A DNA stretch of 64,000 nt, from the IMG/VR virus record IMGVR_UViG_3300045988_145635, one strand, 5' to 3'. Position 1 is the first letter of the stretch; every line of letters begins with the position of its first letter. This DNA comes from a virus (taxonomy: Duplodnaviria; Heunggongvirae; Uroviricota; Caudoviricetes). The notes under the pieces were generated by a model, which ran no database searches, was not told the origin of the DNA, and saw nothing but the letters and a program-made list of their open reading frames with translations. Positions 6,507 through 38,826 of this stretch are shown here, piece after piece. The position numbers were made by a program, and so were the translations under genes.

Positions 6507-6613
6507 CATATGGTGGGGGATATCCCCACCTTCTCTTTGATTTGTAAGCCTTGTTTAAACACATAAGATAACAACTTGTTTAAACGCACCAAAAAAAGAA
6601 AAAGGAAAAACAC

Positions 6614-7833: not shown

Positions 7834-8703
7834 ATGAACTTTACCAAACTGACTGACCACCTGAAACTTGCCACCGATCGTCTCATTGGATTTAAGCCAG
7901 AACCATATGAGTTGCATGAAGGTCATGGTGTAGCTACTGAAAGTATTTACAAGATGGTCGATCAGTTTCATGAACTCTTCCAGCATCCGAGACGCGTTAT
8001 GCCGACACCAGAGCTGCTTCGTCTCCGTGCAAGCCTGATTCATGAAGAAGCTGTAGTGGAAGGTATTCCAGCCGCAATGAATGGGGATATTGAGCAACTG
8101 CTGGATGCAATGGCCGACTTTTTATACGTTGGTGTTGGTACGATGGTCGCCATCAAAGGTGGTATTTCTACCGGCATGACCTATTACACGCAGGAACAGA
8201 GCATTGATCGCTTTATGCAGACAATTTTTGTGCCCGGTAACACTGTTTTCGATGATATGGCAATGCCATTTCAGGAAGCTCGTGAGGCGTCATATATGCT
8301 CGAAGAGCTGGCAGATAAACTTGAGAACAAGACTGTTAAGGATTCTGAGCTGATTCAGGAACTGCGCCGTGTCATGAACAAAATCTATGTGGCGTGCATG
8401 ATGACCTATCGACTGGCTGATTTCCTCGGTATCAATGTAGTCGAGCTGGTTGGCGAAATTCATCGGTCTAACATGACAAAATTATGGCCTGCTGATGTCG
8501 AGGAACGTCGCCAGGCTGTGGCCAACTGCAAATACGACTCTTCAGACCTGGGATTTCGCCATGCTGATGGTACCGATAAGATGATCGGTTTTCGAATTTC
8601 CGATGGAAAGATTCTGAAGTCTCCAACCTATAGTGATGTCGATTTATCCTCCTTTGTTGAGCAAGCTAAAGCCTCAGCAATGTACGGAATGATCAAAAAA
8701 TAA
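7834..8703 (+). CDS. hypothetical protein, possibly MazG-like NTP pyrophosphohydrolase
   Basis: 289-aa ORF with two E/D-rich helical segments (LIHEEAVVEGIPAAMNGDIEQLLDAMADF; LIQELRRVMNKIYVA) resembling all-alpha NTP-PPases; assignment tentative. Confidence 0.4.
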   Translation: MNFTKLTDHLKLATDRLIGFKPEPYELHEGHGVATESIYKMVDQFHELFQHPRRVMPTPELLRLRASLIHEEAVVEGIPAAMNGDIEQLLDAMADFLYVGVGTMVAIKGGISTGMTYYTQEQSIDRFMQTIFVPGNTVFDDMAMPFQEAREASYMLEELADKLENKTVKDSELIQELRRVMNKIYVACMMTYRLADFLGINVVELVGEIHRSNMTKLWPADVEERRQAVANCKYDSSDLGFRHADGTDKMIGFRISDGKILKSPTYSDVDLSSFVEQAKASAMYGMIKK

Positions 8704-11999: not shown

Positions 12000-12557
12000 A
12001 TGACAACGATTGTTGCAGGCATCGATATCGAGTCTACGGGACTGGATTTCCTTGCTGGTCATAAAATTATTGAAATCGCAATTACCCGCTATGAACTGGA
12101 GACACAGAGACATATTGATAGTCTGGAGATGCGTTTTAACCCTCGCAGAAACATAGATCCGAAAGCTCAAGCCGTTCATGGCATTTCATTGGAACAGCTC
12201 GCAGCTGAACCTTTGTTGTCAAATCATGCCAGCGAAATTGGCGCTTATATGGGGGCATGTAGTGTGTGGGTTGCTCATAACGGCGAAGCATTTGATATAC
12301 CATTTATTCGACACGAGTTTTCAGGGTATGGAGTAAGACTGCCAGAAGTTCCTGTTATAGATACTATGTTATCGGGATTGTGGGCCACAGAAGACGGTAA
12401 ACGTCCCCGCCTTGAAGAGTTGGCCTTCTCTCTTGGCTTTATATACGATCATGCCAAAGCACATAGTGCCTTATATGACACAAACTTAATGATGCAATGC
12501 TTCTTTAAGGCACGTAATAAGTACGGATTTTTTAAATTACCCTCTGAAATTGTGTAA
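12000..12557 (+). CDS. DnaQ-like 3'-5' exonuclease (DEDDh family)
   Basis: Exo I GIDIESTG, Exo II VAHNGEAFDIPF, Exo III HSALYD motifs. Confidence 0.75.
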   Translation: MTTIVAGIDIESTGLDFLAGHKIIEIAITRYELETQRHIDSLEMRFNPRRNIDPKAQAVHGISLEQLAAEPLLSNHASEIGAYMGACSVWVAHNGEAFDIPFIRHEFSGYGVRLPEVPVIDTMLSGLWATEDGKRPRLEELAFSLGFIYDHAKAHSALYDTNLMMQCFFKARNKYGFFKLPSEIV

Positions 12558-26806: not shown

Positions 26807-27907
26807 TCACACTGCGCGGAATGCGATTTCGCCAGGTATTACTTCACCTTGCCAATACATTTGGGCAGCAACGCGATCTGCGAGGTCACGATAAATAGCC
26901 GTAAATTCGCTATCTGGACGACTAATAACGGTTGGTGTTCCGTTATCCAGATCTTCACGAAGAGAGATATGAAGTGGCATTTGGCCTAACAACTGCGTGT
27001 TGTATTTCTCGGCCAGTTTCTGTGCGCCACCGGTGCCAAAAATTGGCTCGTGATGACCGCAGTTACTGCAAATATGCACACTCATGTTTTCGACGATACC
27101 CAGTACCGGCACTTCGACTTTTTCGAACATCACAATGCCTTTCTTCGCATCGATCAGCGCGATGTCTTGCGGCGTAGTTACCACAACCGCACCAGTTACA
27201 GGAATGTTCTGCGCCAGCGTCAACTGAATATCACCAGTGCCCGGCGGCATATCGAGAACGAGATAGTCCAGATCAGGCCATAGAGTTTCCTGCAACATCT
27301 GCATCAGCGCCTTGCTGGCCATCGGTCCACGCCACACCATTGCATTGTCGTCGGTGACCAGATAACCAATAGAGTTGGTTGCCAGGCCATGAGACATGAT
27401 AGGTGCCATGTGAGTACCGTCCGGTGAGGTTGGACGTTGGTTTTCCGCGCCCAGCATGGTTGGAATTGATGGACCATAGATATCGGCATCCAAAATACCA
27501 ACTTTCGCACCTTCAGCAGCCAACGCCAGTGCCAGATTTACCGCCGTGGAGGATTTACCTACGCCGCCCTTGCCTGAGCTGACGGCGATAATGTTCTTAA
27601 CGCCATTAATGCCTGGTTGGTTTTTGACGCGCTTAAGCGTGGCAATGTTGTACGACAGCTTCCAGTCAATAGCCTTTGCGCCAGTGATACGGAGCAGATC
27701 ACCACTACATTGCTCTTTCAGGTCTTCAAAAGGCTTATTCCACACGAAAGGCATGATTAGTTCGACATGCAGTGTGTCATCCATCAACGCAACATGGTGT
27801 AACGCTTTAAGCGTAGTCAGGTTGTGTTTCAGGGTTGGGTGCTGAAAATTAGCCAGCGTACCGGCTACCATTGCTCTCAGGGCATCCGGCGATTTGGACT
27901 CGCTCAT
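26807..27907 (-). CDS. apbC: Fe-S cluster carrier ATPase Mrp/ApbC (host-type)
   Basis: 366-aa protein that matches recalled enterobacterial Mrp almost throughout (SGKGGVGKSSTAVNLALAL, CSNCGHHEPIFG); divergent from metG as in enterobacterial chromosomes. Confidence 0.95.
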   Translation of the reverse strand: MSESKSPDALRAMVAGTLANFQHPTLKHNLTTLKALHHVALMDDTLHVELIMPFVWNKPFEDLKEQCSGDLLRITGAKAIDWKLSYNIATLKRVKNQPGINGVKNIIAVSSGKGGVGKSSTAVNLALALAAEGAKVGILDADIYGPSIPTMLGAENQRPTSPDGTHMAPIMSHGLATNSIGYLVTDDNAMVWRGPMASKALMQMLQETLWPDLDYLVLDMPPGTGDIQLTLAQNIPVTGAVVVTTPQDIALIDAKKGIVMFEKVEVPVLGIVENMSVHICSNCGHHEPIFGTGGAQKLAEKYNTQLLGQMPLHISLREDLDNGTPTVISRPDSEFTAIYRDLADRVAAQMYWQGEVIPGEIAFRAV

Positions 27908-28064
27908 CCCGTCTCCTTTATTTTAATTTGCGCAATTGTCGCCTTGTAGTGTACTCCAGCTACGACATTTAATCATTTATGAGAAATGCTGTTATCACAT
28001 GGCAGACATAAGGCCATTTTGTTACTATCAAGCCCCTTTTCACTACAAAGAAGTAATGCCTACT

Positions 28065-30098
28065 ATGACCCAAGTCGCGAAGAAAATTCTGGTGACGTGC
28101 GCGCTGCCGTACGCTAACGGCTCAATCCACCTCGGCCATATGCTGGAGCACATCCAGGCTGATGTCTGGGTTCGTTACCAGCGAATGCGCGGCCACGAGG
28201 TTAATTTCATCTGTGCCGACGATGCCCACGGTACGCCGATCATGCTGAAAGCGCAGCAGCTTGGTATCACACCGGAGCAGATGATTGGCGAAATGAGTCA
28301 GGAACACCAGACTGATTTCGCAGGCTTTAACATCAGCTATGACAACTATCACTCGACGCACAGCGAAGAGAACCGTCAGTTGTCTGAGCTTATCTATACT
28401 CGCCTGAAAGAGAACGGTTTTATTAAAAACCGCACTATCTCTCAGTTGTACGACCCGGAAAAAGGCATGTTCCTGCCGGATCGTTTTGTAAAAGGCACCT
28501 GCCCGAAATGTAAAGCGCCAGATCAATACGGCGATAACTGTGAAGTCTGCGGCGCAACATATAGCCCGACTGAATTGATCGAGCCGAAATCGGTGGTTTC
28601 TGGCGCTACCCCGGTAATGCGTGATTCCGAACACTTCTTCTTTGATCTGCCTTCTTTCAGCGAAATGTTGCAGGCATGGACCCGCAGCGGCGCGTTGCAG
28701 GAGCAGGTGGCGAACAAAATGCAGGAATGGTTTGAATCCGGCCTGCAACAGTGGGATATCTCCCGCGATGCGCCTTACTTCGGTTTTGAAATTCCGGACG
28801 CGCCGGGCAAATATTTCTACGTCTGGCTGGACGCGCCGATTGGCTACATGGGTTCCTTCAAGAATCTGTGCGACAAGCGCGGCGATACCACCAGCTTCGA
28901 TGAATACTGGAAGAAAGACTCCACCGCCGAGCTGTACCACTTCATCGGTAAAGATATTGTTTACTTCCACAGCCTGTTCTGGCCTGCCATGCTGGAAGGC
29001 AGCAACTTCCGCAAGCCGACCAACCTGTTTGTTCACGGCTATGTGACAGTGAACGGCGCGAAGATGTCCAAGTCTCGCGGTACCTTTATTAAAGCCAGCA
29101 CCTGGCTGAATCATTTTGACGCCGACAGCCTGCGTTACTACTACACTGCGAAACTCTCTTCGCGCATTGATGATATCGATCTCAACCTGGAGGATTTCGT
29201 TCAGCGCGTGAATGCCGATATCGTGAACAAAGTGGTTAACCTGGCCTCCCGTAATGCAGGCTTTATCAACAAGCGTTTTGACGGCGTGCTGGCAAGCGAA
29301 CTGGCTGACCCGCAACTGTACAAAACCTTTACTGATGCCGCTGAAGTGATTGGCGAAGCATGGGAAAGCCGCGAATTTGGTAAAGCTATCCGTGAAATCA
29401 TGGCATTGGCTGACCTGGCTAACCGCTATGTCGATGAACAGGCTCCGTGGGTGGTGGCGAAGCAGGAAGGGCGCGATGCCGATCTGCAGGCGATTTGCTC
29501 TATGGGCATTAACCTGTTCCGCGTGCTGATGACGTACCTGAAACCGGTACTGCCGAAACTGACTGAACGTGCAGAAGCATTCCTGAATACAGAACTGACC
29601 TGGGATGGTATCCAGCAACCGCTGCTGGGCCATAAAGTGAATCCGTTCAAGGCACTGTATAACCGTATCGATATGAAACAGGTGGAAGCACTGGTGGAAG
29701 CATCCAAAGAAGAAGTGAAAGCCACAGCCGCACCGGTAACTGGCCCACTGGCTGACGACCCGATTCAGGAAACCATCACCTTTGACGACTTCGCCAAAGT
29801 TGACCTGCGTGTGGCGCTGATTGAAAACGCGGAGTTTGTTGAAGGCTCTGACAAACTGCTGCGTCTGACACTGGATCTCGGTGGGGAAAAGCGTAATGTC
29901 TTCTCAGGCATCCGTTCTGCTTATCCCGACCCACAGGCATTGATTGGTCGTCACACCATTATGGTGGCTAACCTGGCTCCGCGTAAAATGCGCTTCGGTA
30001 TCTCCGAAGGCATGGTGATGGCTGCTGGCCCCGGCGGGAAAGATATCTTCCTGTTAAGCCCGGATGCTGGTGCTAAACCTGGCCACCAGGTTAAGTAA
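28065..30098 (+). CDS. metG: methionine--tRNA ligase (host-type)
   Basis: 677-aa protein from [25 protein letters not shown] to the C-terminal tRNA-binding domain; essentially identical to recalled E. coli MetG with a handful of substitutions; HIGH and KMSKS motifs present. Confidence 0.97.
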
Positions 30099-31339: not shown

Positions 31340-31446
31340 AACATTGATAATGGCGGTCACAATTTGATTCTTTTCTATAAGAATCCGTTGATCGCCACTA
31401 CTCCCCTTCCATGCCTGGAATCACATCCTTAAATATCAATAGGTTA

Positions 31447-31482
31447 CAGTTGTTTATACCAATAAGAAAACAACTGAATAAC
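31447..31482 (+). promoter_or_regulatory. class A motif, split-palindrome variant
   Basis: CAGTTGTTT-N11-AAACAACTG inverted repeat including CCAATAAGAAAACAA, placed at the start of the AC-rich ORF-free tract. Confidence 0.4.
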
Positions 31483-32337
31483 AGATCAACGAAACATCAA
31501 CGCTTTCACCCGATTTGGTCTAAAAAATTGACGTTTTCACACATCACTGCTTATACCCGTAATTCTACGCAGCAGACAGCGCCACAGCGTCCAATTTTCA
31601 CCACAGACGACCCAACACACTACCAACAAAAACACACGCTCAAAATCGTTCCCGTTGCGTTACATAACCATATAAACAACTTATTTTCAGGAATAACAAA
31701 ACAACTAAATAACACATATGCCATTCCCAAAACAACCAACCTCTTTATGGCAGGCTACCGAAAAGACCCACCTCTTCTTCCCAGGCTACCGGACAACCAA
31801 CCTAACTTTCACAGGCAATCCGAAAACATTCATACGCGCGATACCCACGACACGCCATTACCCAAACAACGAAGAAACACCTGAACCACTGAAACCCCAA
31901 CGAAGCCTGTTACCGCAAGGATTCTCTCAATCCCAAAAGACACGAAACATAACAATCACGGGAAACGCCATTACCCAATACACGAATAACTACAAAAGCC
32001 CTTCACACACTCCAGACAAACAACTCAAACACAATAACGAAAGGAATCGCCCACCTGCCATTACTCCATACACGGAGAAGAACAATCACCAAAACGACGA
32101 GAACACCCCATAGAAGAACCACCGCAAAACGAACGAAACCACATACACCGACAGAGAGAACAACACACCCAATTCACCAACAGAAATAGTCGCCGTATAG
32201 AACGTTCTGGAAGGAGTGAGCATTAACGCCTATAGAGAGGTTGAAACAGATAAAACACGAAGAAAACACAACATGTATAGCGAAGAAGCCAGGTATGTAT
32301 AAGTGGGGAGGGAAGGAGGGGTGTCGCCTCCTTTTTC
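31483..32337 (+). ncRNA. candidate long A+C-rich non-coding transcript (hypothetical)
   Basis: ~850 bp with strong depletion of G and T on the + strand and no credible ORF; begins after a class A-like motif and ends at a GGAGG-loop-CCTCC-TTTTT hairpin (32314-32337). Confidence 0.2.
32314..32337 (+). terminator. rho-independent terminator-like hairpin
   Basis: AGGAGG-GGTGTCG-CCTCCT followed by TTTTT. Confidence 0.5.
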
Positions 32338-32399
32338 GTATTTATTCAACTCCTGATTTTATCCCCCGTAACACCCCTACGGTCAGCCTTCGGTCCATA

Positions 32400-32540
32400 C
32401 AGGGAAAAGGTTGCATCCCGCTACAGAAACGGCTGGGTTGCCTTCGGGGAACGGCTGGGGATTTTCAGGGAAACGGTCGAGTTGCCTGTGTGGATTTCGG
32501 GAAAAGGCTCGATGCCGGTTCAGGAACGGTGGCGTACCGG
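32400..32540 (+). repeat. degenerate tandem repeats, about 6 units of ~20-23 bp (CAGGGAAA-CGG-CTG type)
   Basis: Successive units CAGGGAAAAGGTTGCATCC, ACAGAAACGGCTGGGTTGCC, GGGGAACGGCTGGGGATTTT, CAGGGAAACGGTCGAGTTGCC, CGGGAAAAGGCTCGATGCC, CAGGAACGGTGGCGTACCGG. Confidence 0.6.
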
Positions 32541-32853
32541 TATAGCGTGAGGGAGAGTTGCGGCTGTCCACCTGTAATGTGCGGGAAGAAGAGAGGCGCT
32601 CACGTGCAGGCGAACTTACTTACCGTTGGACTCCCTCTGAATGCCCAGCTACAGCGTAATTGTGCCAGACAGTCAGCGGGTCACAATCGATTTCAGTAGG
32701 TTTTCGGGGAGAGGATTATTCTGCCCACCAGCCACCTTCGGCCACTAAATCAGAATAATGTAAAAAGTGTACTCGGTACTGAACCTGAAAACTCACTGCC
32801 AAAACCACATTCACCGGAATAAAATCCTTTTTCGCCTGTGCGTTATTGCGATA

Positions 32854-32885
32854 ATAACACCAACAAGAAAACATGTTGTTTAAGG
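32854..32885 (+). promoter_or_regulatory. class A palindromic motif
   Basis: TAACACCAACAAGAAAACATGTTGTTTAAGG; upstream half conserved with 35007-35036. Confidence 0.5.
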
Positions 32886-32893
32886 ATTGCTTT

Positions 32894-33223
32894 ATGTTTG
32901 CAAATATCGACATCAACCAAATCAAGAAATTAACTCAAAAAGAGTTTGATCAGTTTTATGAGTTAGAAGGTTGGTCTTCCACTCTGATCAATTCGCGGTG
33001 GGTGCTTGAGCTGATGACTCGTGATGACGCACCTGCTTTGATGATTTGCGACATGGGTGAAGATGCTGACTTTATGGATATGAGCGAATTTTGTGTGGAC
33101 ACATACAACCGCAGCCAGAAGTACTACTTCACATGCGATAGCGAAAATGACGTGATTTCTAAGGTCTATCTTCACCTCGTCCAGCATTGGGACGTTCAGG
33201 AGTTTCTTGAAGTATTCGAGTAA
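32894..33223 (+). CDS. hypothetical protein
   Basis: ORF-track start 32873 lies inside the class A motif; moved to ATG 32894 which follows an AAGGA site. Confidence 0.45.
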   Translation: MFANIDINQIKKLTQKEFDQFYELEGWSSTLINSRWVLELMTRDDAPALMICDMGEDADFMDMSEFCVDTYNRSQKYYFTCDSENDVISKVYLHLVQHWDVQEFLEVFE

Positions 33224-33349
33224 CCCCAACCAAAGCCAGCATTGCTGGCTTAACTTAATCTGTAGCCGCAGGGAAGAACCTGCATATCGCCCATGCACCT
33301 GATCAATATGCTTTGTAGCCGTTTTCTTACTGGTATTATTTACGCCATT

Positions 33350-33370
33350 GAGAAAACAAGTTGTTTACGG
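33350..33370 (+). promoter_or_regulatory. class A palindromic motif
   Basis: GAGAAAACAAGTTGTTTACGG ending 8 nt before ATG 33378. Confidence 0.5.
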
Positions 33371-33377
33371 AGTTGTG

Positions 33378-33689
33378 ATGAAAAAATCATTGGTTCTTGG
33401 TCTGGACAAAGACCAGAAGAGAAAAGAGAAGCCTGCGCTGGTTGCTCAATTAACTTTGCTGGACATCGTTGCCAATGGAACCTCTATTCGTCTGTTCCGT
33501 GAAACGGCGGTGTCTTTCGATAAAAACACCTTTACTCGTTATGTAATGAATGTTCGTCGCCAGCGTGGAAAAGGCTGGGTGGCATTTCAAAGAATGTGGC
33601 CGGAACATCAGCTCGAACTGGCTTTGATGGAAGTTAACCGCGTGGCCCAGCAAGAAATTCAGAGAGCATCAGTGATGGCAATAGCCTGA
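33378..33689 (+). CDS. hypothetical protein
   Basis: Start at ATG 33378 after ACGGAG; 103 aa. Confidence 0.45.
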   Translation: MKKSLVLGLDKDQKRKEKPALVAQLTLLDIVANGTSIRLFRETAVSFDKNTFTRYVMNVRRQRGKGWVAFQRMWPEHQLELALMEVNRVAQQEIQRASVMAIA

Positions 33690-33723
33690 TAATGTGCAAG
33701 TGGTAATTAGTCGACAGTACGAC

Positions 33724-33753
33724 AGCCCCGCCATCCTTACGGGGCTTTTTTTG
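33724..33753 (+). terminator. rho-independent terminator
   Basis: AGCCCCG-CCATCCTTA-CGGGGCT followed by TTTTTTT. Confidence 0.7.
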
Positions 33754-33816
33754 TATTGTAAGTACATACTTACGATCATAGAATATAAAAATAACCAAAA
33801 CACTACGGAGAGTGAA

Positions 33817-34212
33817 ATGACCGTTAAACGCGAAAAACTGACAGTTGATGTTTACTATGCCTCTGAAACCGCCGAAGGTAAGAATGTGGCAAAAATCACC
33901 GTTGTTACGTACAACACCGAAACTGGCGCCGAAGTCCAGGCCAGTACGATCGTGCGTAAAGGTGATGCCTCCGGCGGCGAGTACGAGACTCAATACCAGT
34001 CTATTTTCGATGCAACTGACCCGCTGCTGCTGAAAATCGAGAACTACTTCCGCCAGGTTGATGAAGAGGTGTTTGAAACCATGATGAATATGGTTAACAC
34101 CGTATTCGCCTCCAGCCTGAATACCAGCACCACCTGGATTGGCCAGTACGGTCTGCGCATTACCTCTGGCATTCCTGCCGACACCTTAATCCCTGAAAGC
34201 GTATTCGCTTAA
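33817..34212 (+). CDS. hypothetical protein
   Basis: ORF-track entry 33694-34212 trimmed: its 5' part contains the terminator; ATG 33817 follows a GGAGAG site. Confidence 0.45.
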   Translation: MTVKREKLTVDVYYASETAEGKNVAKITVVTYNTETGAEVQASTIVRKGDASGGEYETQYQSIFDATDPLLLKIENYFRQVDEEVFETMMNMVNTVFASSLNTSTTWIGQYGLRITSGIPADTLIPESVFA

Positions 34213-34220
34213 TCCTCTTT

Positions 34221-34246
34221 AAATGGCGCGTAAACCGCGCCATTTT
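34221..34246. terminator. bidirectional terminator hairpin
   Basis: Perfect 10-bp stem AAATGGCGCG/CGCGCCATTT with 5-nt loop, T-rich on the 3' side. Confidence 0.65.
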
Positions 34247-34254
34247 CTTATACC

Positions 34255-34305
34255 CGATAACAATTTGTTTTCTGCCTTATCTGATTTGTGAAAATGATTT
34301 CACTG
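34255..34305 (+). promoter_or_regulatory. class A extended module
   Basis: CGATAACAATTTGTTTTCTGCCTTATCTGATTTGTGAAAATGATTTCAC, same module as at 22075 and 30182. Confidence 0.5.
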
Positions 34306-34329
34306 AAGCAACTTAATAAGGAAACCATC

Positions 34330-34704
34330 ATGGGACTTGATATCTATATCGAGACACAGCCTAAAAACGATCTGAATAACGAGGCATCCAGAAAGCGGGT
34401 TGCTTACTTCTGTAAGTTCAATGCGCTCGTTGGGTGGATGGAGCGCAACGTAGGTGAAGTCGAAAATTGTGAGCTTTTAGAATTAACGATGAATGACATT
34501 TGTCTTCTGAAAGCTCATTTGATGCACATAAACGAAAGTAATTGCGAAGAGTACTTGCCTACTCGGGAAGGTTTTTTCTTCGGCAGTCAGGAGTACGATG
34601 AAGGTTACTGGCATGATGTGGGGGAGTTGAAAGAGCTTGTGGAAGATCTGATTAAGAACCACGACTTTCACAATAACAGACTGACCTTCTGCGCCTGGTG
34701 GTAA
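34330..34704 (+). CDS. hypothetical protein
   Basis: ORF-track start 34288 is a GTG inside the conserved module; ATG 34330 with AAGGA site preferred. Confidence 0.45.
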   Translation: MGLDIYIETQPKNDLNNEASRKRVAYFCKFNALVGWMERNVGEVENCELLELTMNDICLLKAHLMHINESNCEEYLPTREGFFFGSQEYDEGYWHDVGELKELVEDLIKNHDFHNNRLTFCAWW

Positions 34705-34706
34705 AT

Positions 34707-34850
34707 ATGGGCGATTTCAAGAAACGCCTGAAGGAAAGAGCCGAGATGGTCAGAAAGCAAAACGCCTCTTCTGTCATCAGATACGCAAGGCAGTTTAGTC
34801 GCAACAACAAATCAGTTGAGGAAAAGATCCTTAGCGTAATCGTGCGATAA
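34707..34850 (+). CDS. possible small protein (47 aa)
   Basis: ATG 2 nt after the upstream stop; basic peptide; below the ORF-track size cutoff; followed by a hairpin. Confidence 0.25.
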   Translation: MGDFKKRLKERAEMVRKQNASSVIRYARQFSRNNKSVEEKILSVIVR

Positions 34851-34855
34851 TTATT

Positions 34856-34879
34856 AAGGCCACCAGCATTGGTGGCCTT
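34856..34879. terminator. terminator-like hairpin
   Basis: Perfect 10-bp stem AAGGCCACCA/TGGTGGCCTT with GCAT loop; a related AAGGCCA...TGGCCTT hairpin occurs at 22049-22071. Confidence 0.5.
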
Positions 34880-35006
34880 AAATGACCATCCTGTTTCCCG
34901 CAGGCTAAAACACCAACCTCTTACCTCCAGGCAACCGACAAACCCACCTGTTCCCGTCCGGCTACCGCAACTTTCCACTTTGACGCCTTATTCGTACAAC
35001 GATAAT

Positions 35007-35036
35007 TAACACCAACAAGAAAACAATTTGTTATTT
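35007..35036 (+). promoter_or_regulatory. class A palindromic motif
   Basis: TTAACACCAACAAGAAAACAATTTGTTATTT about 20 nt upstream of ATG 35054. Confidence 0.5.
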
Positions 35037-35053
35037 ACGATAAGGAATTAATC

Positions 35054-35536
35054 ATGAATTTTATCGCTACTGTAAACGCACCCGCACATGGCAATATCGC
35101 TGTAACGTTCTCTGACATTGAAAAACGAGTACTTGGTGCATGGCGCGACAATGAGACGGTAGAACTGTCAGCACAAGAAAAATGCATTATTGCACGCGAC
35201 ATCATTGGCAATCGTCGTTACTCGCGGGTATTTGAGAAAGCGTATGTGGTAAATTCTGGATTCGGAACGTTCGTCTTTCCGGTGCGCTCCGGGCGATTCT
35301 GCCAGTCCAAGTTGATTGAGTTCGCTACGCAGATTTCTGTCTGGATTAAAACTCAATCGTCGTTCAAATTTTCCGACGATGAAGCAGTATCGCAGGGGAT
35401 GCGGATCGCCAACAATGCAATTAAATGCAAAAACATTACGTATACCGCTGGCGTTGATACATGGAAACTGTTTTGCGCTAACTTTATGCTGAATGTATAC
35501 GCAAGCAACCGCATCCACATCCTTGATGGCGTGTAA
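35054..35536 (+). CDS. hypothetical protein
   Basis: 160-aa ORF after a class A motif; followed by a terminator hairpin. Confidence 0.5.
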   Translation: MNFIATVNAPAHGNIAVTFSDIEKRVLGAWRDNETVELSAQEKCIIARDIIGNRRYSRVFEKAYVVNSGFGTFVFPVRSGRFCQSKLIEFATQISVWIKTQSSFKFSDDEAVSQGMRIANNAIKCKNITYTAGVDTWKLFCANFMLNVYASNRIHILDGV

Positions 35537-35544
35537 CTGAGAAG

Positions 35545-35568
35545 AGGGCCAGAAACGGCCCTTTCTCT
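35545..35568 (+). terminator. rho-independent terminator-like hairpin
   Basis: AGGGCC-AGAAAC-GGCCCT followed by TTCTCT. Confidence 0.5.
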
Positions 35569-35570
35569 AT

Positions 35571-35710
35571 AGCCACCAGCTGCCGCAGGGAAATTTTCAG
35601 AAACGGCAAGGAACGCATTCATGAGCCGACGGGAAACGGCCAGGATTTTTTCGGGAAACGGCTGCATTCGCCTTTGTGTAGAAAAAAACATCGGGAAGCT
35701 GGTGGAATCC
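35571..35710. repeat. GGGAAACGGC-type repeats enclosed by a 9-bp inverted repeat
   Basis: CCACCAGCT (35574-35582) and AGCTGGTGG (35697-35705) flank CAGGGAAATTTTCAGAAACGGC, CGGGAAACGGCC and CGGGAAACGGCTG units; same repeat family as 32400-32540. Confidence 0.55.
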
Positions 35711-36084
35711 AACCAGCGGTTGTCGGACAGGTGAGCGGGGAAAATTATGATGACTTTCGTCGCCTGAGACATCCAGATTTCTTTCGTAGCATAATCACAT
35801 ACGTGATTAAGTGGTGTGATTATGTGAAAAATCACGCGCACATAATACGCGAGCGGATACGGAACAAAACAAAATGCCGATCCGCGCCGACAAATAAACG
35901 CGGATCATAAAGCAAGACTAAAAGCCAATGATTAACCATACACCATAACGCAATATAACGCGTTTTAAGCGCGTTAATGCGCTAAGTAATGGGTATATAC
36001 TGGTAAGGATATAAAAGCTCGTCTGTGGCGTTATTTTGGCGCTTATTTTTATGTTGTTGGAGTGAGTCAAAGACAATAAAAAAA

Positions 36085-36655: not shown

Positions 36656-37306
36656 TTACGCTTTGAAAGCATCAGCTAGATAATTGTAGAAATCATTCTT
36701 GATAAAGCGATATTGCTGCGTACCAGCTTTCGCGCTCCCAGCTCCTTTGACTTTTTCAACAAGTCCAAGACGTTCGCAAAGATTGATCAACTGGTTGGCT
36801 TGAGTATAGCCAGCGTCCAATTTAATCTCGCACGCTTTTTTCGCTTCATTCATTAAATCGAAAACAGCGCCATTGGTGAACGTGTCGATCTCGTCGTTAA
36901 TCATATCGATTAAAGCGAATACACGAGATCCTGACATATCAGCGACGGAATAAACACATTTACCAGCTTTAATGGATTTAACCAGATAAACCAGTTTTTC
37001 CAGTGAATAACTATTAGTCATTGCATCACGGAAAAATACTTCTGGCGCTTGTTTACTTGCTTTGATCGCATAGTAGAAAACAGAGCATAATTTTTCGTCT
37101 TCTACTGCGTTTACGACGTTGTTGATGAAGTAAGCAAGTTTAGTGGTAGCAGCTTGCATATTTGCTTTGTCTGCTTTGGTGTGCGTACCATTTTTATAAT
37201 GTTCATTATATGTTTGAGTTGCCAGATCTGCTTTTTCGCGCAGCTCGTCGGATACAATGGATGCAGCTTCAATGATGGATTTTTTAGAAATGATAATGTT
37301 AGCCAT
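36656..37306 (-). CDS. hypothetical protein
   Basis: 216-aa ORF in the AT-rich minus-strand island. Confidence 0.5.
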   Translation of the reverse strand: MANIIISKKSIIEAASIVSDELREKADLATQTYNEHYKNGTHTKADKANMQAATTKLAYFINNVVNAVEDEKLCSVFYYAIKASKQAPEVFFRDAMTNSYSLEKLVYLVKSIKAGKCVYSVADMSGSRVFALIDMINDEIDTFTNGAVFDLMNEAKKACEIKLDAGYTQANQLINLCERLGLVEKVKGAGSAKAGTQQYRFIKNDFYNYLADAFKA

Positions 37307-38262: not shown

Positions 38263-38826
38263 TCAAAAAGGTAAAATTCGTTCAACCCAATCGAAGAAAA
38301 CAAGAATTTTTCTGCCGTCTTTCAACTTAAGTGTGACTAGGCAGGCATCAACGCCATCTGACGTTCCCTCAATTTCGCGGCCGTCTGCCATGTAGACCCT
38401 TATAGATTGGCCGTTTTGATAAGCCTTGCGACATATCTTAAAAAAATCACGACGTGATGGCTGGTTGTCTACATAGTCAGGGTGTATTGTTAGTCTCCCT
38501 TTGAAATCGTAATCAATGCCATCAATTACGCCTGATTCAATTGTGCTAATGCGCTCAAGTGGGAGCCTTATACGATTTTCTTTGTCAAATGGAGTTGGAC
38601 AAAGGTCAACTTTGTTACGAGATGACATGAGACCATAAACGTACATGCAAAACACTTGGCCGTCTTCGAGAGTGACTCTTACAGGAAATTTAGCCCTCCG
38701 CCAGAAGAGCAAGGTGCGTTCAGCATGTTCGTAGTCTCGCGGCCATACTTCAGCCGGTATGCCGTAGGTGATATCTTTCGTCGTCATATCATTATAAAGT
38801 GGTTGGCAATATGTCCATTGTACCAT
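38263..38826 (-). CDS. hypothetical protein
   Basis: 187-aa ORF; alternative start at ATG 38787 would avoid overlap with the lipoprotein gene; its last 19 codons lie in the 52-bp repeat. Confidence 0.45.
   Translation of the reverse strand: MVQWTYCQPLYNDMTTKDITYGIPAEVWPRDYEHAERTLLFWRRAKFPVRVTLEDGQVFCMYVYGLMSSRNKVDLCPTPFDKENRIRLPLERISTIESGVIDGIDYDFKGRLTIHPDYVDNQPSRRDFFKICRKAYQNGQSIRVYMADGREIEGTSDGVDACLVTLKLKDGRKILVFFDWVERILPF

Follow-up and report, generated by a model that had tools for sequence, protein, structure and literature searches.

The 64,000-nucleotide stretch of viral DNA analysed here (IMG/VR record IMGVR_UViG_3300045988_145635; hereafter, the window) carries two real, conserved, and helically phased arrays of short direct repeats. 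The window is 97% identical to Escherichia phage Cyrano (pLF82) and the CMS-2020a records, and is an SSU5-type phage-plasmid. Its relatives include Salmonella phage SSU5, pHCM2 of S. Typhi, and many plasmids, about 105-115 kb in size, of Klebsiella, Enterobacter, Citrobacter, and Cronobacter. In lysogens, SSU5-type elements are maintained as low-copy plasmids with a RepA (IncFIB) replicon, and they possess a replication gene set of their own. We infer, with good support from sequence comparison, that the arrays are docking sites for a sequence-specific protein on double-stranded DNA. That they constitute a second, vegetative replication origin, or the locus controlling it, is our leading but tentative interpretation, to which we assign a probability of about 0.35.

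Array 1 consists of six direct copies of the 9-bp core SRGRAAMGG, usually followed by C, on the plus strand at 32400-32529. As read from the sequence, the units are, in order, CAGGGAAAAGG, CAGAAACGG, CGGGGAACGG, CAGGGAAACGG, CGGGAAAAGG, and CAGGAACGG; they end at 32410, 32432, 32454, 32476, 32507, and 32529, giving spacings of 22, 22, 22, 31, and 22 bp. This agrees with an earlier note on this DNA, which had described about six related units after a terminator at 32337. The same note had placed a second cluster of the same family at 35577-35710, and array 2 was indeed found there, with three good copies (CAGAAACGG at 35598-35606 and CGGGAAACGG at 35630-35639 and 35652-35661; spacings of 33 and 22 bp) and two degenerate copies (CAGGGAAA at 35586-35593 and CGGGAAGC at 35692-35699). 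Both arrays lie on the plus strand in non-coding DNA, directly 3' of intrinsic terminators.

The clustering and phasing of the cores are far beyond chance. In 300 first-order Markov simulations, the number of cores within 140 bp averaged 2.35 and never exceeded 4, as compared with six in the window, and successive pairs at 21-23 bp averaged 0.20 with a maximum of 2, as compared with five. The 9-mer core as such, with one mismatch allowed, was weakly enriched across the window (17 matches vs 10.7 expected). The enrichment for which the earlier note had asked resides in clustering and phasing, while the tandem-repeat search that it had proposed came out negative: Tandem Repeats Finder called neither array, even at a minimum score of 30. 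The arrays are not simple tandem repeats, in the sense of head-to-tail copies at least 70% alike, and conservation is confined to the core of 9-10 bp. Because this motif was defined after the data had been seen, the decisive support comes from its conservation.

Across six genera, more than 75 distinct related loci retain the core and its spacings (22, 31, 33/34, and 43/44 bp, each close to a multiple of 11), although the sequence of the spacers has diverged, and few positions outside the core carry information in the alignment of relatives. Array 1 matches 712 PLSDB plasmid records; its spacing is conserved in the Escherichia, Salmonella, Enterobacter, Cronobacter, and Citrobacter lineages, and reads 43, 22, 22, 22 in Klebsiella. 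For array 2, the 33/34 + 22 spacing is kept across genera. The array-bearing non-coding segments of the E. coli, Salmonella, and Klebsiella elements align at 67-78% identity, whereas the flanking DNA matches little. A 51-kb Cronobacter deletion derivative retains both arrays together with the repA region, and therefore does not separate the hypotheses considered below. The literature searched contained no published description of the arrays.

The mechanism with the best support is that a phage-plasmid protein binds cooperatively to double-stranded DNA, occupying one face of it. With cores at intervals that are multiples of about 11 bp, all on the same helical face, several copies of the protein could sit side by side and the DNA could wrap around them; the two arrays would serve as multi-site docking platforms for a protein encoded by the phage-plasmid, as at iteron origins. 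Like such origins, the arrays carry a motif repeated at least three times in direct orientation, with about two helical turns from one copy to the next. They would mark or control a vegetative origin region separate from the RepA/oriR replicon of the prophage-plasmid, and this origin would serve the element's own replisome, whose genes encode a DnaB-like helicase, a primase, Pol III alpha, a gp32-like single-stranded DNA-binding protein, and UvsW/UvsX/UvsY-like proteins. We infer separately that DNA rather than RNA is the target, which protein binds it, and that an origin is served.

The known plasmid replicon does not account for the arrays. In pJN2-26, the repA iterons (ACCGCTGACAGCATA at 21-bp spacing) flank the rep gene, annotated as RepB family, about 30 kb from the arrays; in the lineage of the window, repA falls outside the window. 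Since the repA iterons differ in both sequence and position, the arrays are not a plasmid-mode origin, and we ruled them out as RepA plasmid origin or incompatibility repeats. The earlier note had offered a replication origin or an array of regulator-binding sites as alternatives; an array of protein-binding sites, on one strand, phased, and conserved, is well supported, and the plasmid-mode form of the origin is not.

Three features lend circumstantial support to the origin interpretation, namely an AT-rich 33-mer at array 1, a pair of Chi sites around array 2, and a winged-helix protein encoded nearby. Chi (GCTGGTGG) is twelvefold enriched in the window, with 16 sites vs 1.3 expected. To the left of array 2, most of 75 distinct loci have the minus-strand Chi at about -55 to -58, counted from the centre of the array; to the right, the plus-strand Chi falls at +66 to +114 in most relatives, at positions that are non-homologous between lineages. 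RecBCD recognises Chi on approach from the 3' side, so both bracketing sites are active against an enzyme moving from outside towards array 2. This polarity is the one expected around a point of diverging forks, and the reverse of that expected for the protection of ends cut at the array. Over four lineages, the first ~50 kb clockwise of array 2 contain 33 plus and 8 minus sites, the ~20 kb before repA contain 0 plus and 20 minus sites, and the interval from repA to array 2 contains 27 plus and 19 minus sites. These counts are consistent with two initiation zones, and also with replication that runs mainly in one direction from repA.

The best candidate for the binder is an unusually conserved 216-aa protein whose gene lies 1 kb beyond array 2, on its right. 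It belongs to an unknown family, is 82-86% identical across genera, and is predicted to begin with a long helical hairpin and to end in a winged helix. The top Foldseek matches of the model were Orc1/Cdc6 and ORC chains. The homolog in a divergent relative, the K. quasipneumoniae contig L220, is 53% identical, and no covariation between protein and motif was seen among distant homologs. The rival candidate is a FljA-like protein ('repressor of phase-1 flagellin', PF03614), encoded 2.6 kb from array 2 and kept in all relatives, including the Klebsiella elements. It was modelled as two tandem Hfq/Sm-like domains (pLDDT 77.5), and Foldseek matched the model to Hfq with a probability of 1.0 and a target TM of 0.7-0.8. 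Klebsiella lacks flagella, and the retention of the gene in such hosts suggests that the real target of the protein is on the element itself. PMC2652032 reports that FljA-type regulators block translation of fliC mRNA. The tandem Hfq/Sm-like fold agrees with this and would therefore make the FljA-like protein the natural binder if the motif acts in RNA.

Several observations weigh against an origin at the arrays. Pfam and PHROG scans, together with hidden Markov model (HMM) and tblastn searches, detected no Rep- or O-type initiator among the genes adjoining the arrays. The PHROG and Pfam scans of the genes beside the helicase and primase and around the arrays returned families of unknown function only, and PDB sequence searches with three neighbouring proteins yielded no match. 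The DnaA box TTWTNCACA (4 in the window vs 7.5 expected) is absent from both arrays, the nearest being at 35823-35831, about 160 bp to the right of array 2. The AT-rich stretches beside the arrays are short (33 bp and 19 bp), the arrays themselves are 57% GC, and the GC skew tracks gene orientation with no inflection at the arrays. The sharpest genome-wide switch in Chi orientation is at repA, not at array 2; moreover, the Chi counts derive from homologous sites in related genomes, which are not independent, so the Chi pattern is suggestive at most. In L220, gene order and a GRAAACGG core are kept (plus-strand coordinates 12036-12096 and 8428-8464), but the spacing has shifted, to 24, 10, 26 and 12, 24; strict 22-bp phasing therefore belongs to the main SSU5-like clade and not to every relative. 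A rearranged Serratia locus encodes a homolog of the 216-aa protein with no array within 7 kb. The Foldseek E-values for the 216-aa model are all weak (at least 0.03), and the searchable literature yielded no experimental data on the arrays.

Array 1 is situated within a conserved non-coding region of about 1.5 kb, unannotated in most records, in which a G-depleted tract, a hairpin, an AT-rich stretch, an invariant box, and the array follow one another (Table 1). The neighbourhood had been described at first as AT/AC-rich and unwinding-prone, a description that did not hold. The tract is A+C-rich with a GC content of about 33-53%, mostly 41-49%, and is distinguished by G depletion (GC skew of -0.3 to -0.58; G = 8-16% in the window's lineage), which was found in all ten lineages examined. 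It is not AT-rich and therefore not obviously unwinding-prone, and the only AT-rich stretch adjoining array 1 is the 33-mer, a possible unwinding element. Three or four copies of the repeat CGCCATTACCCAAnACACGA occur inside the tract, including those at 31853, 31966, and 32056. Open reading frames (ORFs) across it translate to low-complexity sequence, and those annotated in some records look spurious; its 3' part is 67-81% conserved in SSU5 and the Klebsiella phages. If transcribed rightward, the tract would be an ideal Rho-loading site, and if transcribed leftward, it would be prone to R-loops.

Table 1. Coordinates of the two arrays and of neighbouring features in the window
Feature	Position	Strand	Basis or remark
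G-depleted, A+C-rich non-coding tract, ~800 nt	31400-32200	+	Composition profile
Terminator-like hairpin, GGAGG...CCTCC then T5	32310-32337	+	Consensus scan; similarly placed hairpin in relatives
AT-rich 33-mer cctttttcgtatttattcaactcctgattttat	32330-32362		Read from sequence; partly conserved in alignment
Strongly conserved box ATCCCCCGTAACACCCCTACGGTCAGCCTTCGG before array 1	32361-32399	+	Invariant columns in alignments A1 and A2
Array 1	32400-32529	+	Six direct copies of the core
Conserved non-coding segment 3' of array 1	32530-32870	+	Alignment A1
Block of small conserved genes of unknown function between the arrays	32873-35536	+	ORFs, relatives' annotations, PHROG families of unknown function
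Intrinsic terminator of the 160-aa gene, GGGCC-AGAAAC-GGCCC then T-rich tail	35546-35568	+	Sequence; conserved in alignment A3
Chi (CCACCAGC on the plus strand)	35573-35580	-	Directly left of array 2
Array 2	35586-35661	+	Three good and two degenerate copies, counting 35692-35699; sequence reading, alignment of relatives
Short AT-rich stretch tttgtgtagaaaaaaacat, 19 bp	35673-35691	+	Right of array 2; sequence
Chi GCTGGTGG	35698-35705	+	Right of array 2
216-aa protein, candidate binder	36656-37306	-	Predicted long N-terminal helical hairpin and C-terminal winged helix
FljA-like protein (PF03614), rival candidate binder	38263-38826	-	Pfam E = 4e-80

The conserved segment following array 1 includes a minus-strand Chi at 32725-32732 and is succeeded by the block of small genes, each of which is preceded by the same promoter/operator-like element (repeat family D1). 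This element contains the palindrome GAAAACAnnTTGTT, the first box being at 32867-32880. With one mismatch allowed, the palindrome occurs 18 times in the window vs 0.8 expected (positions 6567, 16799, 17528, 30181/30232, 32867, 33352, 34256, 35019, and 45773/45798 among them); another copy is at about 29250 in L134. The palindrome lies 10-50 nt 5' of many start codons, including those of all the small genes between the arrays, the small terminase, and parA in Cyrano, and resembles either an operator through which a regulator acts genome-wide or a promoter or translation element common to these genes. The stem-loop of the terminator that closes the 160-aa gene contains a CAGAAACGG core of its own at 35550-35558. 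Array 2 is placed between convergent transcription units and their terminators and is therefore not a promoter operator.

Some additional features were noted in the region. Conserved inverted repeats (ATTGTG...CACAAT and ATTATTCTG...CAGAATAAT) are present 3' of array 1 at 32660-32765, and a cluster of CATAATCACA/TGTGATTATG repeats is present 3' of array 2 at 35791-35835; both might represent additional operators or structures in RNA. Just 5' of the non-coding region, genes for a full-length methionyl-tRNA synthetase (27936-30098, plus strand) and a MinD/Mrp-like ATPase (26807-27907, minus strand) were assigned from the annotation of close relatives. Both are present in the annotations of the E. 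coli lineage and missing from the SSU5 and pJN2-26 annotations of this region.

Phased copies of the same core are also found at prophage origins. A pattern scan of IMG/VR retrieved unrelated lambdoid prophages of enterobacteria (L018, L034, L038, L044, L065, L071, L073, and L082) whose O-like initiator gene contains gCCGAATGGAAACGGC iterons spaced at 22/44 bp. As in the lambda origin, these iterons precede a tract that is rich in AT and GATC, with repeated ACAGATC; the initiators match PHROG families named 'replication initiation O-like'. The scan shows, in favour of the origin interpretation, that the same core and phasing occur elsewhere in what appears to be an origin-like setting, with the shared core itself selected by the search pattern. 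When the flanks alone were scored against the lambdoid iteron profile, eight of the nine units were at background (percentiles 0.2-0.77), which also counts against the origin interpretation; the sole exception, the array 2 unit AGCCGACGGGAAACGGCC, is the best plus-strand match to that profile in the window. No homolog of the O-like DNA-binding domain was detected in Cyrano, pJN2-26, or SSU5 by HMM and tblastn searches (best HMM E of about 1). With the core pre-selected, the flanks at background, and the O-like domain missing, the resemblance is therefore architectural and not one of family. We rejected a lambda O-type origin on the same grounds: the arrays lie outside coding sequence, searches for the O-like N-terminal domain gave no homolog, and the flank profile is dissimilar. 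The resemblance could alternatively reflect mimicry, the arrays acting as decoys that titrate the initiator of a competing co-resident lambdoid prophage, or as sites that hijack it. The phasing of the lambdoid iterons, the top-scoring unit of array 2, and the lack of a detectable O-like DNA-binding domain in the phage-plasmid itself are compatible with such a role, which is nevertheless highly improbable, as eight of nine flanks fit no better than background and the arrays are conserved across genera regardless of resident prophages. A more credible alternative, though still a doubtful one, is that the arrays are architectural or regulatory sites and not an origin, and that a protein such as the 216-aa winged-helix protein bridges them, looping or insulating the 3.2-kb small-gene block. 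The effect could be to silence genes or form a boundary in lysogeny, or to control copy number by handcuffing. The arrays flank a conserved block with one common promoter/operator element, and each stands directly after a terminator at a block edge. The phasing of the direct repeats suits looping as well as it suits an origin, and so does the nearby winged-helix protein with its long helical hairpin; the missing DnaA boxes and large unwinding element pose no problem for looping. On the other hand, neither array overlaps a recognisable promoter, the transcription units on either side of array 2 converge on it, the conserved Chi bracket would have no evident purpose at a purely regulatory site, and interaction between the two arrays is a supposition from their layout. 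Type Ib and type II centromeres and the sites of terminase small subunits are likewise arrays of short repeats, and the arrays might accordingly be partition or packaging (pac/cosB-like) sites bound by a ParA partner, by the small terminase, or by two ParB_N-domain proteins. The genes for these two proteins, like the terminase, are located 7-11 kb to the right of the arrays, and CGTTTCC on the opposite strand of the core presumably recalls the R sites of lambda cosB. We consider these functions quite improbable. Against packaging, terS is 10-13 kb distant from the arrays, the small terminase shows no match to a Nu1-like family, and the Chi polarity at array 2 is probably the reverse of that protecting ends cut there. 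Against partition, parA is about 40 kb away and its upstream region does not carry the motif, and a partition centromere (parC/parH/parS) was rejected on this basis.

The repeats could also act in RNA: plus-strand transcripts, arising by read-through or made separately, with many GGRAAAC motifs might bind the FljA-like protein, as a sponge or to control flanking mRNAs. Besides the conserved position of the gene, its RNA-binding type of fold, and the reported effect on fliC mRNA, this is favoured by every unit being on the sense strand of the local plus-strand genes. It is also favoured by a match to the fliC leader: the E. coli fliC 5' untranslated region (UTR) contains GAGCCGACGGGTGGAAAC and array 2 contains GAGCCGACGGGAAAC, so that 11 nt (GAGCCGACGGG) are identical between array 2 (35622-35636) and the 5' UTR of E. 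coli K-12 fliC (L213, minus strand, about 2160-2140), both continuing with GGAAAC or GAAAC. However, this identity is confined to the E. coli lineage, with about 7 nt in other lineages, and is therefore probably due to chance. Both arrays are 3' of intrinsic terminators with no promoter predicted for them, and action in RNA offers no reason for spacing in multiples of about 11. The arrays matched no Rfam family at permissive thresholds. The RNAalifold consensus (-12.8 kcal/mol, covariation term of -0.17) revealed no conserved structure, the single-strand folding z-score of -0.7 gave no support for one, and hairpins presenting the core in a loop were not enriched (84 observed vs 101 in shuffled-flank controls). 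A known RNA family or a protein-sponge small RNA was rejected for these reasons. We regard an RNA platform for the tandem-Hfq-fold protein as unlikely, and place it equally beside another view, in which the 1.5-kb non-coding module and array 2 would together form a previously undescribed type of vegetative origin, with a dedicated winged-helix protein wrapping the phased arrays. Initiation at such a module would proceed via transcription or R-loops across the strand-asymmetric tract, or via recombination, in keeping with the UvsW/UvsX/UvsY/gp32-like genes, and the Chi bracket would protect the initiation zone.

SSU5-like phage-plasmids, some of which carry resistance genes, are frequent in clinical isolates of Escherichia, Klebsiella, Salmonella, and Enterobacter. 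The replicon for the plasmid state (RepA, IncFIB) is already known; in the literature we found no description of how their lytic replication starts or of what controls the conserved small-gene block. A second origin at the arrays, if true, would explain how one element switches between low-copy plasmid and phage replication, and would offer a means of curing such plasmids or of typing them by incompatibility. Should the arrays instead act in regulation or at the RNA level, they would define the recognition element of an uncharacterised, very widespread regulator. Which importance they have depends on experiment.

Among known systems, the CsrB/RsmZ sponge RNAs share with the arrays many short purine-rich motifs with GGA, but the arrays differ in having no Rfam match, no hairpin presentation, and no promoter, and in lying 3' of terminators. 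Phage P4 has its short direct repeats in two clusters, ori and crr, which lie a few kb from each other and are recognised by the alpha primase-helicase. The arrays have the same layout with an unrelated motif, and no alpha homolog was seen beside them, no search for one having been made. The lambda OL/OR operators form two clusters, 2-3 kb from each other, that can loop together, and the sites within a cluster follow one another at about two helical turns. The arrays resemble them in the number of clusters, the site spacing, and the distance, whereas the lambda operators are dyad-symmetric and overlap promoters, and the array units are direct repeats outside any recognisable promoter. Some lambdoid prophages with lambda-type origins in O-like genes share a GGAAACGG core at 22/44-bp spacing; their iterons are inside the initiator coding sequence, have GCCG...CGGC dyad symmetry, and precede an AT-/GATC-rich tract, whereas the arrays are non-coding, have no O-like gene, and do not match in the flanks. 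Unlike the iteron plasmids (P1 incC/incA, F oriS, RepFIB, R6K, and pSC101), the arrays have no Rep gene between or beside the clusters, no DnaA box, and a core of 9-10 bp rather than 17-22 bp, and the element's own RepFIB-type iterons are of different sequence and about 30 kb off. With these plasmids they share direct repeats in the same orientation, phasing at about 22 bp, two separated clusters, and an AT-rich stretch beside one cluster.

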